Shown here: positions 2,164-51,224 of the stretch, piece by piece
How positions within the stretch are numbered: position 1 is the first letter of the stretch
Layout of the letters: each line of letters opens with the position of its first letter
Source of the DNA: a virus
Reading direction: 5' to 3' (one strand)
Virus record (IMG/VR): IMGVR_UViG_3300043411_000952
Coordinates: 10,194-74,193 of that record
DNA length: 64,000 nucleotides
Translations under genes and position numbers: made by a program
Notes under the pieces: generated by a model
The model's database searches: none
What the model saw: the letters and a program-made list of their open reading frames with translations, nothing else
Told to the model about the DNA's origin: nothing

Positions 2164-2562
2164 ATGTCAATCGAAGCAATCGTCATCAAAGCCGCGCGTA
2201 AGAAGTGGCGTTTCGCAACCACCAAAGGCCACCTCAGCTTTGAGGATCTTTGGGATCTCAGCCTGGAGGCGCTCGATAAGATCGCCGTCGCGCTGGATGA
2301 GAAAATCCAGAAGGGAGGACGTAAGTCCTTCATCACGAAGAAGACCGAGAGCATGACCGAAGAGCAGGGCATGTTCGACCTCGTCAGCTTTGTCATCGAA
2401 ACCAAGATGGCAGAGGCAGACGCCGCCAAAGATCGCGCCGCTAAGCGCGGTCAGCGTGAGTTCCTTGAGGAGCTCAAGAAGAAGAAGCAGATCGCCTCTC
2501 TCGAGGGTCTGTCCCTTGAGGATATCGATAAGCAGATCGCCGCACTCGGAGCAACCGAGTAA
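2164..2562 (+). CDS. Conserved phage hypothetical protein (coiled-coil C-terminus)
   Basis: ATG at 2164 after an AC-rich leader; RF.T.KG.LS.EDLWDL motif; strongly GC3-rich codons. Confidence 0.75.
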   Translation: MSIEAIVIKAARKKWRFATTKGHLSFEDLWDLSLEALDKIAVALDEKIQKGGRKSFITKKTESMTEEQGMFDLVSFVIETKMAEADAAKDRAAKRGQREFLEELKKKKQIASLEGLSLEDIDKQIAALGATE

Positions 2563-2574
2563 AACCAAAACCAC

Positions 2575-2608
2575 GCCGTCAGGAGTTAATTCTCCTGGCG
2601 GCTTTTTT
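2575..2608 (+). terminator. Intrinsic terminator
   Basis: GCCGTCAGGAG / CTCCTGGCGGC stem followed by T6. Confidence 0.85.
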
Positions 2609-2676
2609 ATTACGCGCATCTCTCAGGTTTTTCCTAGAAAAAAGCCGAAAAATTCTTTTGCAACAAGTTACCTTAG

Positions 2677-2696
2677 TGTGTTATATAAATTTGTAC
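2677..2696 (+). promoter_or_regulatory. Phage promoter motif copy 2
   Basis: TGTGTTATATAAATTTGTAC, identical to 89-108 and 51161-51180. Confidence 0.8.
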
Positions 2697-3150
2697 GGGT
2701 AGTAATATCTGTGCTATAATCCAACACAAGTTGGCGCAGATACGTAAAATAGTGTAATGCGTATTCAAGAAAATAAACTAACACTAGTTACTCCCTCCCG
2801 AGGTTCTAACCCTCGGGAGGTTAGATAATTGCTCTTAAAGCGCCCTGAATCTCCTCACGGGTTCAGACGGTTACAAGGCCGAATGCCCAGCCTGGGCCGA
2901 CAGGCGAAGCTGCTCTGCCTCTTTGCAGAGAACGTTGAGTAAGAGCAATCTGGATCTGATATGACAGTCATACTTAGACTGAGCTAGTATATGGTCACTC
3001 TGCAATGATCATAGTATTAGCCTTATCCAGGAAACAACCCCCATCCATTAAGACATCAACCGCGCGGCTCAGAGCTGATCTGACATGGACCAAGTTGTAG
3101 GGAGGCGCGAATATTTACAGAGATGTAAATTATTCGCGCCTTTCTTTTAC
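2697..3150 (+). ncRNA. Putative ~450-nt structured non-coding RNA
   Basis: No ORF of 60 aa or more; bounded by promoter motif and terminator; many nested helices (2794-2803/2811-2820, 2828-2837/2940-2949, 2950-2955/3025-3030). Confidence 0.65.
3101..3150 (+). terminator. Intrinsic terminator
   Basis: AGGCGCGAATA / TATTCGCGCCT stem followed by TTCTTTT. Confidence 0.8.
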
Positions 3151-3267
3151 ATATTATGTAATATAAGGGTCTACCAAATAAGGACGACCTTGAGGCGAGA
3201 ACGTCCAGGCTCACACGCGAGCCGGGGCGGAAACCTCCGCTGAAACAACTGACTCTCTACCAAAAAA

Positions 3268-3522
3268 ATGAACTCTAATACTCCAGAAAGCCCGGCTCGT
3301 TGTGTGCAGCCTGCTTGTTCGGCCTTCTTGCGCACGATCAATGGCGATCTCTACACTAAGCCTGTCTTCACTGCCCTGGATGACTGCTATGAGCAGGGGC
3401 AAGCCGCAAGCTCACAGGGCTACCGCCGCGACCAAAATCCGTATCCCAAGGGCACCGCTCAGCGGGAATGGTGGGATGGCGGATACTGCAACGAAACCGA
3501 CGAACTAACTGGAGAAGCATGA
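3268..3522 (+). CDS. Rmf/CrpP-like small protein
   Basis: CYEQGQAA..G.....NPY......REWWDGGY resembles the ribosome modulation factor pattern. Confidence 0.55.
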   Translation: MNSNTPESPARCVQPACSAFLRTINGDLYTKPVFTALDDCYEQGQAASSQGYRRDQNPYPKGTAQREWWDGGYCNETDELTGEA

Positions 3523-5684: not shown

Positions 5685-8184
5685 ACATAGACATTTAGAG
5701 GCAACTCTAGATGGATCTGTTGTAGGATTGATGGGACCTAATGGTTCAGGTAAATCCACTATTCTTAAATTAATTCATTTTCTTGTTACTGGCTGGACAC
5801 CAGCTAAGGAAACACAAGAATCCTTTATTCGTAAGGTGGACCCGGAGATTGAGGCCGAGCCCGCCTGTGGTTCCGCTGAAATGGAATTCTACGCGCAAGG
5901 AAACACGTATAGAATTAGTCGAAAGATCGGATCTCCCTCCTCCAGAAAGCTCGTAAAGCTGGATGCTAAAGGAAAGGAAATCAAAGACGAAACATATACC
6001 AGCGCAGCAGAGATACAGGCTCTTTTAACTGAAATCCTTGGCGCTGACAAGTATGCTATTGATAACGCTGTGTTTCCTGAACAGGGTGCATTGGATAAAA
6101 TATTATTTGGGTCCCAGGCGGAGCGTGAAGAGTTGCTGGTAAAGCTACTCCTGCTAGGGCATATGCAGAAGGTGGCGGATGTAGCGGCAGGTAAAATCAA
6201 AATACTGGCCTCTGAGATTCAGGACTTCTCGACTTTGCATGATGAGCTACAGGCGACCAGAAATAGCGCAGAAGTAGAGCTCGCTACCGCCGAGGAGCAG
6301 CTGGTGCGTACTCGCAGTTATGCAGCAGAAATTAAACTATATGAAGATTGGGAACGCGCAGTTAATGAGTTAACATCTAATTCATCTCATCTGCTGAGCG
6401 CCAAAAATGCCGCCCGCATTAATGAAGATAAAGTAGCCGCTGTTCTGGAAGAGCAAACTACCAAGTTAGGGGTAGCTATAAACTCACCTGAGGAATTAGG
6501 TAATTGGGTTGATAAACTCAAAAATAAAATTAAGGGCGCGCATCAGACGGTAGCCGCGCTACAAGACACCAAAGGTAAGGCAGCCCAGTATAAAAGTATC
6601 GCTGAACGTATAGTTAATTATAATAATGATCTGTTACTTCTTAAAGCGGATTGTCCTGCGCCTGTAGACCCTAACTTGATTTCTAGCCTGGATAAAAAAA
6701 TCAGGGATCAGAACCTCCGGGAGATGTACCGGTTGGAAGTTCAGGAGGCTACAGTTAAAGGAAAGGAAACTAGGGATAGAGTTGATAGACTTGTAGAGAT
6801 AGTTAAGGAACTAACTGAAGATTTAAAACGTGTCGAGGACGAGGAACAAACACTATCTAACGAGAGAGCGCTGTTCAAAACTATCGTAGATACGTGTAAG
6901 CTAGCGTTGGATAATAACTGTACCGCTGACTGCCCGGTGTGCGGAGAGAGTGTTTCTCACGAAAAACTGAGATCCAGACTCGAGACATATAATGTCAAAC
7001 TATTAGAAGCCTCTAAGAAGTTGCACGACATTAGTACTAGCCATGCGCAGACGAGTAAGCAGATGCGTGACATGCAGCATGACCTAACTCAACGGCAGAC
7101 ATTACTATCTTTGTACATTAAAAAATACAAAGATAACAAAGCGCTACTTGATGCAGGCACAGATGAAGACGTACAAGTTTTTAGGGATCAGCTTACTAGT
7201 CTAAATCACGCCACGGCTAAACGCGCGTCCGATATTAAAAGCATAAATAAAATTGAATTTGAGATTAAAACATTAGAGTTTTCTATTCAAGGTTACACTG
7301 AAGAAGAAGTTAAAAGTTTCCATGAGTTAGATATTACCGCTTTGGATAAAGAGGTAACCGAGCTCAAAGATAAGGTCGAGCACTGGAGCTCTAAGCTGGA
7401 TGAGTTGTCTAAAACTTATATTAACATTCAACAACTTATCTCGGCCAGAGAAACGGAGATTAAACGCTCCAAGGAATTTGCTGCTGCATGTGAGGGCTTC
7501 GCTCTAAAAAGGGATGCAATCTTTGACTCTTTTCCTCCGCAACTAAAGAAATTAGTTGAGCAAGGGGGTGAGACAAAAGACACTCTCATAGAGAACAATA
7601 AATTATATAATCAACTAGAAGCCAAAGCAGCGCAGCTTAAAGTCCAGGCCAACAGCATACGTAAACGGTTACGTGAAATTGAGGACAAAATTAAATTGGA
7701 TGAAGATAAACGCGCGGTGATACAGGAATTACAGCGCGTGGTGCATGCGTTCTCTAGACAGGGTATTCCCATGGCTTATGTACAACATAAGTTTGATAGC
7801 CTTGTCAGCATGACTCAGGATAACTTGGAAATTATGGATGCGAACTTCGCTATTATTCCGCATCCCTCTAAACCAGTTAGTCTGCAGTTCTACCGCGTAG
7901 ACGAGCCGGGGCAAGTATTGTTCGACCACGACAAACTATCTGGCGGTCAGAAGGTAAGGTTATCCATCGCCTTCCTTTTAGCTGTTCAGCAATTAGTAAT
8001 CCCGGAATTAGGCTTCCTAGTTTTGGATGAACCTTCTACGCATTTGGATGAGGAGGCTAGAGAAAATTTGAAAGAGCTCTTGCTAAATCTAAATCAACAG
8101 CTAGAAAGTACAGACACTCAAATTCTCGTTTGCGACCACGCAAGAGAGCTTGAACCTGCTTTTGTAAATGTAATTCAATTATGA
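5647..8184 (+). CDS. sbcC: SbcC/Rad50-like SMC ATPase
   Basis: Walker A GPNGSGKST, coiled coil with CPVC zinc hook, LSGGQ signature, LDEPSTHLD Walker B. Confidence 0.93.
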   Translation: MRIKKLLIKNLGKHRHLEATLDGSVVGLMGPNGSGKSTILKLIHFLVTGWTPAKETQESFIRKVDPEIEAEPACGSAEMEFYAQGNTYRISRKIGSPSSRKLVKLDAKGKEIKDETYTSAAEIQALLTEILGADKYAIDNAVFPEQGALDKILFGSQAEREELLVKLLLLGHMQKVADVAAGKIKILASEIQDFSTLHDELQATRNSAEVELATAEEQLVRTRSYAAEIKLYEDWERAVNELTSNSSHLLSAKNAARINEDKVAAVLEEQTTKLGVAINSPEELGNWVDKLKNKIKGAHQTVAALQDTKGKAAQYKSIAERIVNYNNDLLLLKADCPAPVDPNLISSLDKKIRDQNLREMYRLEVQEATVKGKETRDRVDRLVEIVKELTEDLKRVEDEEQTLSNERALFKTIVDTCKLALDNNCTADCPVCGESVSHEKLRSRLETYNVKLLEASKKLHDISTSHAQTSKQMRDMQHDLTQRQTLLSLYIKKYKDNKALLDAGTDEDVQVFRDQLTSLNHATAKRASDIKSINKIEFEIKTLEFSIQGYTEEEVKSFHELDITALDKEVTELKDKVEHWSSKLDELSKTYINIQQLISARETEIKRSKEFAAACEGFALKRDAIFDSFPPQLKKLVEQGGETKDTLIENNKLYNQLEAKAAQLKVQANSIRKRLREIEDKIKLDEDKRAVIQELQRVVHAFSRQGIPMAYVQHKFDSLVSMTQDNLEIMDANFAIIPHPSKPVSLQFYRVDEPGQVLFDHDKLSGGQKVRLSIAFLLAVQQLVIPELGFLVLDEPSTHLDEEARENLKELLLNLNQQLESTDTQILVCDHARELEPAFVNVIQL

Positions 8185-9002: not shown

Positions 9003-10445
9003 ATGAGTAAAGAAGTTCACCTCATGTGGGATGATTCTGTACTGACTATTGCCCCTTCCAGTCCTGCATTGGAAAAGTTTCTGACTTATAGGGAAAAGAA
9101 GTTGGCTCAGGATCCGAATTGCCCATGGAAAAAAGTTACTAAGGTAACTGTAAATCCTTTATACAAAGTCATAAATCAGCAGAATGGATACAATGTTATC
9201 CAGACGATGCAGGGTATGTGGTTGAAAGTAAAAACATTTTTAGAGGATAAAGGCTACGACGTAAAGTTCTACGACATGCGTTTAGCTTTCCCTAAACCTC
9301 GCTTAGACCTGATGTGCGGATTTAGATTTAAACAAGAAGAACTCCTTACTTCCTTTTTAAGTACAAATTGTAGCGGACTATTAGGTGCGCCCACTCGGTA
9401 TGGGAAGACGGTCCTAATCAAAAATACTATACGTGCGTATCCAAATGTACACACAGTAGTCACTGCTCCCGGTGCAGATTTGGTAAAACAACTGTATGAA
9501 GACATTAAAGAAGCGTTACCTCATAGGGAGGTAAAACTAATAGGCGCAGGTTCTACTAAGAGTCCATGCGATGACATTAATGTCGTAAGCATGGATAGCT
9601 TGCATAAGTGCGATGCCGCCGCTTGTAGATTATTATTAGTTGATGAGCCACATGCGTGTGTCACAGACAGTCGTTTACCTGAGCTAGCCAAATTCGATAA
9701 GGCACGTCGTATTGGGTTCGGTGCTACTCTTAAAGGTAGATTTGATCAGCGCGATATTCTTATTGAAGCGCTGCTTGGTCCGGTTATTGCAGAGCGCACA
9801 TTCCAAGAAGCTGTAGCTGAAGGTGCTGTGTGCCCTCTTATTGTGTACATGGTCGTGATGCCTTTAGCAGGTAATTCGGATGACCGTGATCGCGCATACA
9901 AGACGCATCTATTTAAAGGTGAGCGCGTAGCTAAGGCTGTGCGCTGGATTTGTCATGAGCTTCTCCCTCAAGACTGGCAGACCTTGCTCTTTATTAAAAA
10001 TGAAGACCAGGCTGAATACTTTCTAGATTGGGTTGGGCAGGACGGTACTATCGCCATGGCCAAACGCATGACCAAGAAGGAGCGAGAGGAGTTAATGGAA
10101 AGAATGCGTGGCGCTGAAATCAAACGCTGCCTGGCTAGTGAAATATATGCACAGGGTGTGACCTTCAACCATGTGCGCGCTCTTATTAATTTAAGTGGCG
10201 GAGGCGCTAACACATCCACAATTCAAAAACCTGGCAGGCTTGCGGAAGTACGGCCAGATAAGAAGTGTGGTGTTGTGTTTGATTTCTTCTTCACTCCGGG
10301 AACAGGTAGGGGGAACGGGATTCAAGCTTTATATCGCGAGTCCCTGGCTCGAGTTAAAGCATACACAGAAAAAGGTTACGAAATTATTTTCGTAGACGGG
10401 TATAATGAACTCGAGTCCTCGTTTAAATCCAAAGCCATATCTTGA
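9003..10445 (+). CDS. Superfamily 2 helicase (UvsW/Rad25-like)
   Basis: APTRYGKT, VDEPH, GAT, QGV and QKPGRL motifs. Confidence 0.88.
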   Translation: MSKEVHLMWDDSVLTIAPSSPALEKFLTYREKKLAQDPNCPWKKVTKVTVNPLYKVINQQNGYNVIQTMQGMWLKVKTFLEDKGYDVKFYDMRLAFPKPRLDLMCGFRFKQEELLTSFLSTNCSGLLGAPTRYGKTVLIKNTIRAYPNVHTVVTAPGADLVKQLYEDIKEALPHREVKLIGAGSTKSPCDDINVVSMDSLHKCDAAACRLLLVDEPHACVTDSRLPELAKFDKARRIGFGATLKGRFDQRDILIEALLGPVIAERTFQEAVAEGAVCPLIVYMVVMPLAGNSDDRDRAYKTHLFKGERVAKAVRWICHELLPQDWQTLLFIKNEDQAEYFLDWVGQDGTIAMAKRMTKKEREELMERMRGAEIKRCLASEIYAQGVTFNHVRALINLSGGGANTSTIQKPGRLAEVRPDKKCGVVFDFFFTPGTGRGNGIQALYRESLARVKAYTEKGYEIIFVDGYNELESSFKSKAIS

Positions 10446-51081: not shown

Positions 51082-51160
51082 TGGTAATCAGAAAAATATG
51101 TGCTACCAATAGTGGCGCATATTTTTTATATATCCTTATGCATGTAATACGCGTAGTATG

Positions 51161-51180
51161 TGTGTTATATAAATTTGTAC
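51161..51180 (+). promoter_or_regulatory. Phage promoter motif copy 7
   Basis: TGTGTTATATAAATTTGTAC. Confidence 0.8.
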
Positions 51181-51224
51181 GGATAGCAATATCTGTTAAC
51201 AAACCAAGAGAAATAATACATCCT

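Follow-up and report, generated by a model that had tools for sequence, protein, structure and literature searches.

We identified a conserved, stand-alone non-coding RNA gene of a large uncultured phage at positions 2697–3148 (+ strand) of a 64-kb stretch of viral DNA, referred to as the window, which was examined from a 74-kb IMG/VR virus record with an estimated completeness of 41%. In all likelihood, the most conserved domain of this RNA (2828–2949, + strand) is a divergent type-P1 twister self-cleaving ribozyme, for which cleavage is predicted from the sequence. The core is a new variant of the twister class, and the 5′ pseudoknot/T-loop domain and the domain 2 that flank it have no Rfam family. 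This assignment reclassifies an RNA that one would otherwise have placed among the orphan ornate RNAs.

The RNA gene and its relatives

The gene lies between a 173-aa ORF on its 5′ side (end at 2562, followed by a separate terminator at 2575–2602) and an 84-aa ORF on its 3′ side (start at 3268). The closest cultured relatives of the record are rV5-like Vequintavirinae (45% protein identity for the upstream 665-aa gene), and an Rfam scan detected tRNA genes and a group I intron in the record. The initial annotation had described a functional, multi-domain structured RNA that starts at a promoter copy, ends at a strong terminator and contains no ORF of 60 aa or more. Indeed, no ORF of at least 60 aa overlaps positions 2697–3150 on either strand; the longest ones comprise 52 aa (3085–3243, + strand, and 3056–3214, − strand). 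The folding energy of 2720–3150 amounts to −152.5 kcal/mol vs. −109.2 ± 5.4 kcal/mol for shuffled sequences (z = −8.1).

The motif TGTGTTATATAAATTTGTA (2674–2695, + strand) contains a T4-late-like TATAAAT box. It is present in four (+) strand copies at 86, 2674, 51158 and 57413, with none expected from shuffled sequences, and three of the four copies precede ATG starts. All nine homologous loci carry the motif at a fixed distance ahead of the RNA, even where the cargo is different. From these sequence features we infer that it acts as a promoter. The 3′ end is formed by an intrinsic terminator (3103–3148, + strand) composed of a long hairpin and UUUCUUUU. Read from the sequence, the hairpin spans 3103–3141 and is followed by TTTCTTTT, ending at 3148. 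This element is absent from the list of a simple terminator scanner, though it appears in the minimum free energy (MFE) fold and its stem covaries; the T-run is invariant in five sequences.

Two further observations concern the surroundings of these signals. The promoter copy at 51158 is followed by a GNRA-capped 5′ hairpin (ACGGAUA GCAA UAUCUGU; 51158–51200, + strand), as at the RNA gene; since the same type of hairpin occurs there, promoter and hairpin may travel together as a unit. Just past the terminator (3150–3190) a block ATATTATGTAATA..AAGG.TCTACCA.ATAAGG is kept in all long-form relatives, and it may be another promoter or a regulatory site of the downstream 84-aa gene. For the product of this gene (3268–3522, + strand), Pfam gave a weak match to ribosome modulation factor that stays below the cut-off (20.9 vs. 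27.9 bits).

A BLASTN search with the region and with its core against 50,697 cultured-phage records yielded no homologue, and the exact 16-mer ACGGTTACAAGGCCGA gave mostly chance matches within coding DNA in IMG/VR. The 173-aa protein, in turn, led to five related viral contigs (L007–L011), four of which share the RNA over its whole length. Three further loci, L039, L036 and L040, were found in metagenomes by pattern scans. Looser scans of IMG/VR revealed the same core variant (see below; T2 CC/GG, U25-A49) in the unrelated phages L048 and L050. L048 is a fragment with 39% G+C, in which a minimal twister (9405–9481, + strand) lies between a stop codon and the ribosome-binding site of the next gene. 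L050 is a complete 38-kb phage with 63% G+C and carries a minimal twister just after a stop codon (10329–10393, − strand); L092 and L107 resemble it. The ribozyme is single-copy in each phage record searched. A match in the metagenome contig L038 was treated as chance, as it apparently lies inside a protein-coding gene according to our reading of the sequence. L035 and L061, with covariance-model scores of 42.1 and 16.7 bits, were left out: they have no T1 or are without the UAA/P2 strand and are either decayed or unrelated.

The block 2828–2949 is nearly invariant among the relatives except for two hairpins, in which the letters are wholly changed and the pairing is kept. This bears on the possibility that the region encodes a small protein, for instance through a 37-aa TTG ORF (2829–2942) or a 31-aa ORF (3005–3100). 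Such short ORFs do exist; the homologous cores, however, have lengths of 123, 127, 128, 129 and 130 nt and thus differ by non-multiples of three, their variable parts change as paired stems and not as codons, and the region 3005–3100 is full of indels among the relatives. A coding function is therefore hardly conceivable. The earlier view of a functional RNA is borne out by the conservation and the compensatory changes seen across five to nine related loci, and all helices that had been named in it exist.

Architecture of the probable twister core

In an Rfam search no family, including GOLLD and ROOL, matched within 2697–3150 at gathering thresholds. In a permissive scan of 751 bases the best match was the type-P1 twister ribozyme (RF03160) with 22.6 bits and E = 0.033. 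For the description of the core we used the numbering and pairings of the Osa-1-4 twister (PMC5113685, PMC5408937). In this ribozyme the cut occurs between U6 and A7, T2 consists of G13-C31 and C14-G30, T1 consists of C25 and C26 with G49 and G48, plus A46, and a G-C and a U.A pair prolong P4 (PMC5113685, PMC5408937).

The core (2828–2949, + strand) starts with stem P1 (2828–2835/2942–2949, 8 bp). The initial annotation had drawn a longer helix here (2828–2837/2940–2949); its eight outer pairs are P1, while the last two bases of its 3′ strand belong to pseudoknot T1. P1 is followed by the N-A cut site in L1, with the predicted cut between U2836 and A2837 and with A2838 next to it, and by the 4-bp P2 (2839–2842/2933–2936, AGCG/CGUU). 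T2 is formed by C2843-G2878 and C2844-G2877 (CC/GG). P3 (2845–2851/2860–2866) is the variable, covarying stem that had been noted as the hairpin CTGAATC/GGTTCAG. P4 (2868–2870/2879–2881, CGG/CCG) carries the 8-nt loop L4 with the sequence UUACAAGG, which makes three Watson-Crick pairs with the 3′ strand of L1, U2872-A2941, A2873-U2940 and C2874-G2939 (T1, UAC/GUA). Two hairpins follow, P5a (2890–2894/2901–2905) and an extra, invariant hairpin P5b (2913–2918/2925–2930), the latter being the CTCTGC/GCAGAG hairpin of the initial annotation. In the 3′ strand of L1 (2937–2941, GAGUA) G2937 occupies the position of the general base G45 and is followed by A2938.

The window keeps U6, A7, A8, the 4-bp P2, C14, U24, A28, A29, G30, G45, A46 and the C27-G47 pair. 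The corresponding nucleotides A2837, A2838, U2871, A2875, A2876, G2877, G2937 and A2938 are present and invariant among the relatives. They include the catalytic bases, which are G45 and the A 3′ of the cut (PMC6154101, PMC5113685). Six positions depart from the invariant twister core (G13C, C31G, C25U, G49A, C26A and G48U), and all six make up exactly three compensated tertiary pairs, 13-31, 25-49 and 26-48. Since covariance models do not score pseudoknots, these three pairs are independent of the Rfam match. According to deep mutational data, the ribozyme remains active when the T1 pairs or C14-G30 are replaced by other Watson-Crick pairs. In Osa-1-4, on the other hand, each single mutant of G13 is inactive (PMC5113685), and the flipped 13-31 pair is the main chemical uncertainty of the twister assignment.

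With type-P1 twisters (RF03160; Roth et al. 2014, reviewed in PMC5408937) the core shares the order P1-L1-P2-L2(P3)-P4/L4-(P5)-P2′-L1′-P1′, the 4-bp P2, a 3-bp P4 with the G-C and U.A extension, the ability to form T1 and T2, the A 3′ of the cut, A8, G45 and A46, and the usual location among phage genes. It deviates from canonical twisters as follows: T1 reads UAC/GUA where CCC/GGG is usual, T2 has its 13-31 pair inverted from G-C to C-G, the P5 position holds a second hairpin (P5b), and the ribozyme is embedded in a longer conserved RNA gene that has a promoter and a terminator of its own. Among the twister stems, P3 and P5 may be present or absent (PMC5408937). P5b, however, adds a five-way junction, a form not described for twister, which counts against the assignment. 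We also observed that the 5′ strand of P5b (2911–2916) repeats the 5′ strand of P1 (UGCUCU, 2829–2835) with invariant letters. Because of this repeat, the 3′ strand of P1 (2943–2948) could pair with either of the two, and the alternative pairing may represent an inactive conformer.

The score of 22.6 bits is far from the gathering threshold of RF03160 (67.2 bits), which is likewise not reached by L011 (29.9 bits), L050 (33.6 bits) and L048 (26.0 bits). These three sequences nevertheless align end to end with the model, and in four lineages twister is the top or near-top sub-threshold match at the equivalent (homologous or analogous) site. In the window, Rfam mis-aligns the 3′ strand owing to the 49-nt P5 insertion; the model penalizes a large insertion in P5 and leaves the pseudoknots unscored. 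A phage subclass whose two pseudoknots have both diverged through compensated changes thus escapes the curated model.

As a second approach we used a descriptor with fixed letters N-A-A, U...AA and G-A, together with a 4-bp P2, a 3-bp P4, a 3-bp T1, a 2-bp T2 and a P1 stem. A single site fits it on both strands of the 64-kb window (A7 = 2837, P4 = 2868, P2′ = 2933, P1 of 8 bp). In 400 shuffled windows we obtained nine matches with a P1 of at least 4 bp (~0.02 per window) and none with at least 6 bp. When 185,579 prokaryotic species genomes were searched, the 5′ half was matched at 22 places, approximately the number expected by chance. None of the 22 satisfies the 3′ half, so the variant is not evidenced in these genomes with that pattern.

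For the analysis of covariation, nine sequences were aligned with a covariance model (R1) built from nested helices only, with T1 and T2 excluded. This alignment replaced one made with MAFFT, which misplaced the 3′ strands of L048 and L050. Across the five core helices, including T1 and T2, 96.5% of the cells are paired with eight compensatory pairs, compared with 26–44% and zero to three compensated pairs in slid-partner controls. T1 is 100% paired. T2 is paired in all nine sequences and invariant among them, with the 13-31 pair flipped (C-G). Three other phage lineages carry the same twister variant with different but complementary letters in T1 and P2. The middle pair of T1 is A-U in the window and L048, C-G in L011 and G-C in L050 (seven, one and one of the nine sequences for A-U, C-G and G-C), and P2 occurs as AGCG/CGUU, UGCG/UGCA, UGCU/AGCA and UGCC/GGCA across the four lineages. 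As P1, P2, P4, T1 and T2 are invariant in the long-form relatives, their covariation rests on the three distant lineages, which were found by a pattern fixing part of L4.

An alternative reading is a twister-like double-pseudoknot fold that does not cleave and serves as a rigid scaffold or protein-binding module of an intact, ornate RNA of ~450 nt. It would agree with the sub-threshold Rfam score, with the flipped 13-31 pair in view of the inactive G13 mutants, and with the conservation of domain 2 and the 3′ helix together with the twister domain. In addition, other phage contigs show the L4/T1/T2/P2 arrangement with UU or GU in place of G45-A46, and for this reason a twister fold may exist without catalysis. 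Such a scaffold would, however, leave unexplained why exactly the catalytic residues are retained: G45, A46, A7 and A8 do not vary in any of the nine sequences, which represent four lineages. Furthermore, the short form L011 keeps the ribozyme without domain 2. On balance we consider the scaffold unlikely and favor a self-cleaving twister.

The contigs with UU or GU are from phages and belong to the same motif family (L095, L097 with two copies, L105, L108, L109 and L110, as well as L094, L101, L102 and L113). In these sequences UAA, P2 and CC are followed by CGGUUCCAAGGCCG and then by P2′ and GGA; P2, T1 and T2 are intact, and where P1 would be expected the UAA is adjoined by a hairpin. Either the fold is twister-like without cleavage, or the active site is a different one.

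The 5′ domain, domain 2 and the 3′ domain

The presumed transcript start coincides with a 5′-terminal stem-loop (2695–2712, + strand) that is capped by a GNRA tetraloop (ACGGGUA GUAA UAUCUGU). Its six pairs are 100% paired in five sequences, with one pair changed on both sides. Hairpin A (2721–2734, + strand; CCAAC ACAA GUUGG) has five pairs, three of which are compensatory among the window, L007 and L039. The MFE fold suggested a pairing of the 5′ and 3′ ends of the transcript, which we rejected because hairpin A covaries locally. Hairpin B together with an H-type pseudoknot occupies 2740–2786 (+ strand). The stem (2740–2745/2759–2764) consists of six pairs, three of them compensatory and 100% paired; its loop sequence UAGUGU (2750–2755) pairs with ACACUA (2781–2786), which sits 20 nt downstream. 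The six pseudoknot pairs are 93% paired, and one position shows AU, GC and GU. L010 contains the same module of hairpin B and pseudoknot with other letters in the stem.

Hairpin C (2794–2820, + strand) comprises a 10-bp stem (2794–2803/2811–2820), already named in the initial annotation, that is 100% paired with three compensatory pairs. Its 7-nt loop UUCUAAC (UUCAAUC and UUCAAGC in relatives) is similar to a T-loop as read from the sequence. Taken together, the helices of the 5′ domain are 97.8% paired with 11 compensated pairs vs. 33–43% pairing in slid controls. A scan for the 5′ cargo domain found only the contig of L007.

The T-loop-like loop of hairpin C raises the question whether the 5′ domain is a tRNA remnant, with hairpin C as the T-arm, within a decaying tRNA-gene cluster in which the conserved parts are functionless leftovers. 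In line with this, L040, L036 and L008 carry tRNA-like genes at the same place, between the position of hairpin C and the twister. ARAGORN and the Rfam tRNA model (RF00005), however, find nothing at 2697–2830 and make no tRNA or tmRNA call within 2697–3150, where the T-loop-like hairpin is the sole tRNA-like element. The 11 compensated pairs, including those of the pseudoknot, argue for purifying selection on a fold that is not a tRNA. Moreover, L040 contains both the pseudoknot module and a tRNA-like gene, so neither is the remnant of the other. Decay of a tRNA cluster is thus very improbable, and we regard the 5′ domain as a selected RNA structure of its own.

Domain 2 (2950–3030, + strand) follows the core directly. 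It is a three-way junction with two hairpins and a conserved loop CUGCAA. Its closing helix, listed in the initial annotation as 2950–2955/3025–3030, covaries in five sequences and is found as CUGGAU/AUCCAG, UUGGAAU/AUUCCAA and CUUGAGG/CCUCAAG. The 3′ domain (3031–3098, + strand) contains the conserved segments GAAACAAC and AAGUUGUAG. RNAalifold predicts that ACAAC (3034–3038) pairs with GUUGU (3094–3098) around a variable hairpin. Four pairs of this helix are invariant and one is changed on one side only (CG to UG), so covariation neither supports nor refutes it; the enclosed hairpin covaries.

The 5′ domain, domain 2 and the 3′ helix match no Rfam family. The initial annotation had recognized no tmRNA, RNase P or intron signature in the RNA; its first multibranch domain is, in all likelihood, the variant twister. 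For domain 2 we also considered a hammerhead (CUGAUAU...GAAAC). A hammerhead core consists of CUGANGA and GAAA boxes around three stems. The candidate is without G8 and A9, its box is not conserved in L007, and Rfam gave no hammerhead match in 2550–3300 at E values up to 10; the candidate was rejected.

GOLLD and ROOL are large phage-associated orphan RNAs that have been proposed to work intact. The RNA described here is similar to them in being a multi-domain, highly structured phage RNA that extends from promoter to terminator. It differs in its much smaller size and in having a recognizable ribozyme as its core, and neither GOLLD nor ROOL was matched in 2550–3300 at E values up to 10.

Proposed mechanism and role

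Based on the fold and the conserved residues we propose the following sequence of events. Transcription would be driven by the recurrent promoter motif and closed by the intrinsic terminator. During folding, L4 UUACAAGG would pair with GUA (2939–2941) to form T1 and with CC (2843–2844) to form T2. This would place G2937 as the general base and A2837 as the general acid at the U2836-A2837 linkage, which would then be cut by internal transesterification. The predicted 5′ product has ~140 nt, ends with a 2′,3′-cyclic phosphate and carries all four elements of the 5′ domain (the terminal stem-loop, hairpin A, hairpin B with its pseudoknot, and hairpin C with its T-loop-like loop). Everything downstream of the cut, from the ribozyme body through domain 2 and the 3′ helix to the terminator, would form the 3′ product of ~312 nt with a 5′-OH at its start. 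The primary transcript is therefore most likely split at 2836/2837 and does not act as the one ~450-nt molecule of the initial annotation.

What lies between the shared promoter and 5′ hairpin on one side and the shared ribozyme on the other varies among the relatives. The window, L007 and L039 contain the pseudoknot/T-loop RNA (141–143 nt), and L010 has a different insert in which the module of hairpin B and pseudoknot is kept. In L040 this module is combined with a 95-nt tRNA-like gene, L036 and L008 contain tRNA-like genes with large internal insertions, and L009 has a pair of small ORFs, with the stop of the second one directly at P1. The short form L011 has practically nothing at this place (25 nt). 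As the inserts vary and a stop codon immediately precedes the ribozymes of L048 and L050, what stays the same is a predicted cut just 3′ of any upstream element.

Twister ribozymes are known in thousands and their chemistry is well understood, and their biological role has been described as speculative (PMC5408937, PMC6765202). Bacterial and phage twisters have been suggested to process polycistronic RNAs. As one locus with a defined promoter, a defined terminator and a single ribozyme, the gene described here is a tidy case for the role of twisters in phages. Since the space between promoter and ribozyme is empty in some relatives and taken up by a tRNA-like gene or small ORFs in others, we consider host-independent 3′-end formation and release of a swappable upstream cargo RNA the most plausible role, at slightly less than even odds. 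With the ribozyme kept while the upstream RNA is exchanged, 3′-end formation for the cargo is directly testable. The cargo-less L011 fits poorly with a pure cargo-release role. Together with the conserved domain 2, it suggests that the 3′ fragment may serve a separate function as well.

A more tentative extension treats the whole locus as a modular ribozyme-terminated cassette, composed of the late-type promoter, the 5′ hairpin, the variant twister and the 3′ tail. In such a cassette cargos would be swapped and would receive a cyclic-phosphate 3′ end made by the twister, and the 5′-OH fragment would be stable and functional. The cargo would be a new pseudoknotted, T-loop-bearing tRNA mimic in the window, and odd tRNA-like genes or tiny ORFs elsewhere. 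If it were true, this possible arrangement would provide a defined biological role for twister ribozymes.

The cargo-release role is proposed by analogy with theta ribozymes. These minimal HDV-like ribozymes lie beside tRNA genes in gut phages, and host-independent processing of the 3′ trailer has been proposed for them (PMC10879173). As with theta ribozymes, a phage ribozyme lies just 3′ of a tRNA or tRNA-like RNA, a layout that the L040 twister has. The systems differ in ribozyme class (twister vs. HDV-like), and in the window the upstream RNA is not a tRNA and the predicted cut is 16 nt past hairpin C.

The tRNA-like gene of L040 (7623–7717, + strand) is type-II-like and ends 18 nt before the predicted cut; the twister is located at 7723–7829. 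According to ARAGORN its anticodon has four bases (agta) and lies in an enlarged loop; with the Rfam tRNA model the gene reaches 39.6 bits, which is above threshold. The gene could encode a frameshift suppressor, a decoy or a degenerate tRNA. Those of L036 (1075–1376, − strand) and L008 (5256–5440, + strand) are called by neither ARAGORN nor Rfam. They show a Leu-type D-arm, a T-arm with the sequence GCAGGUUCAAAUCCUGC and a 7-bp acceptor stem, with ~90–110 nt inserted at the site of the anticodon arm.
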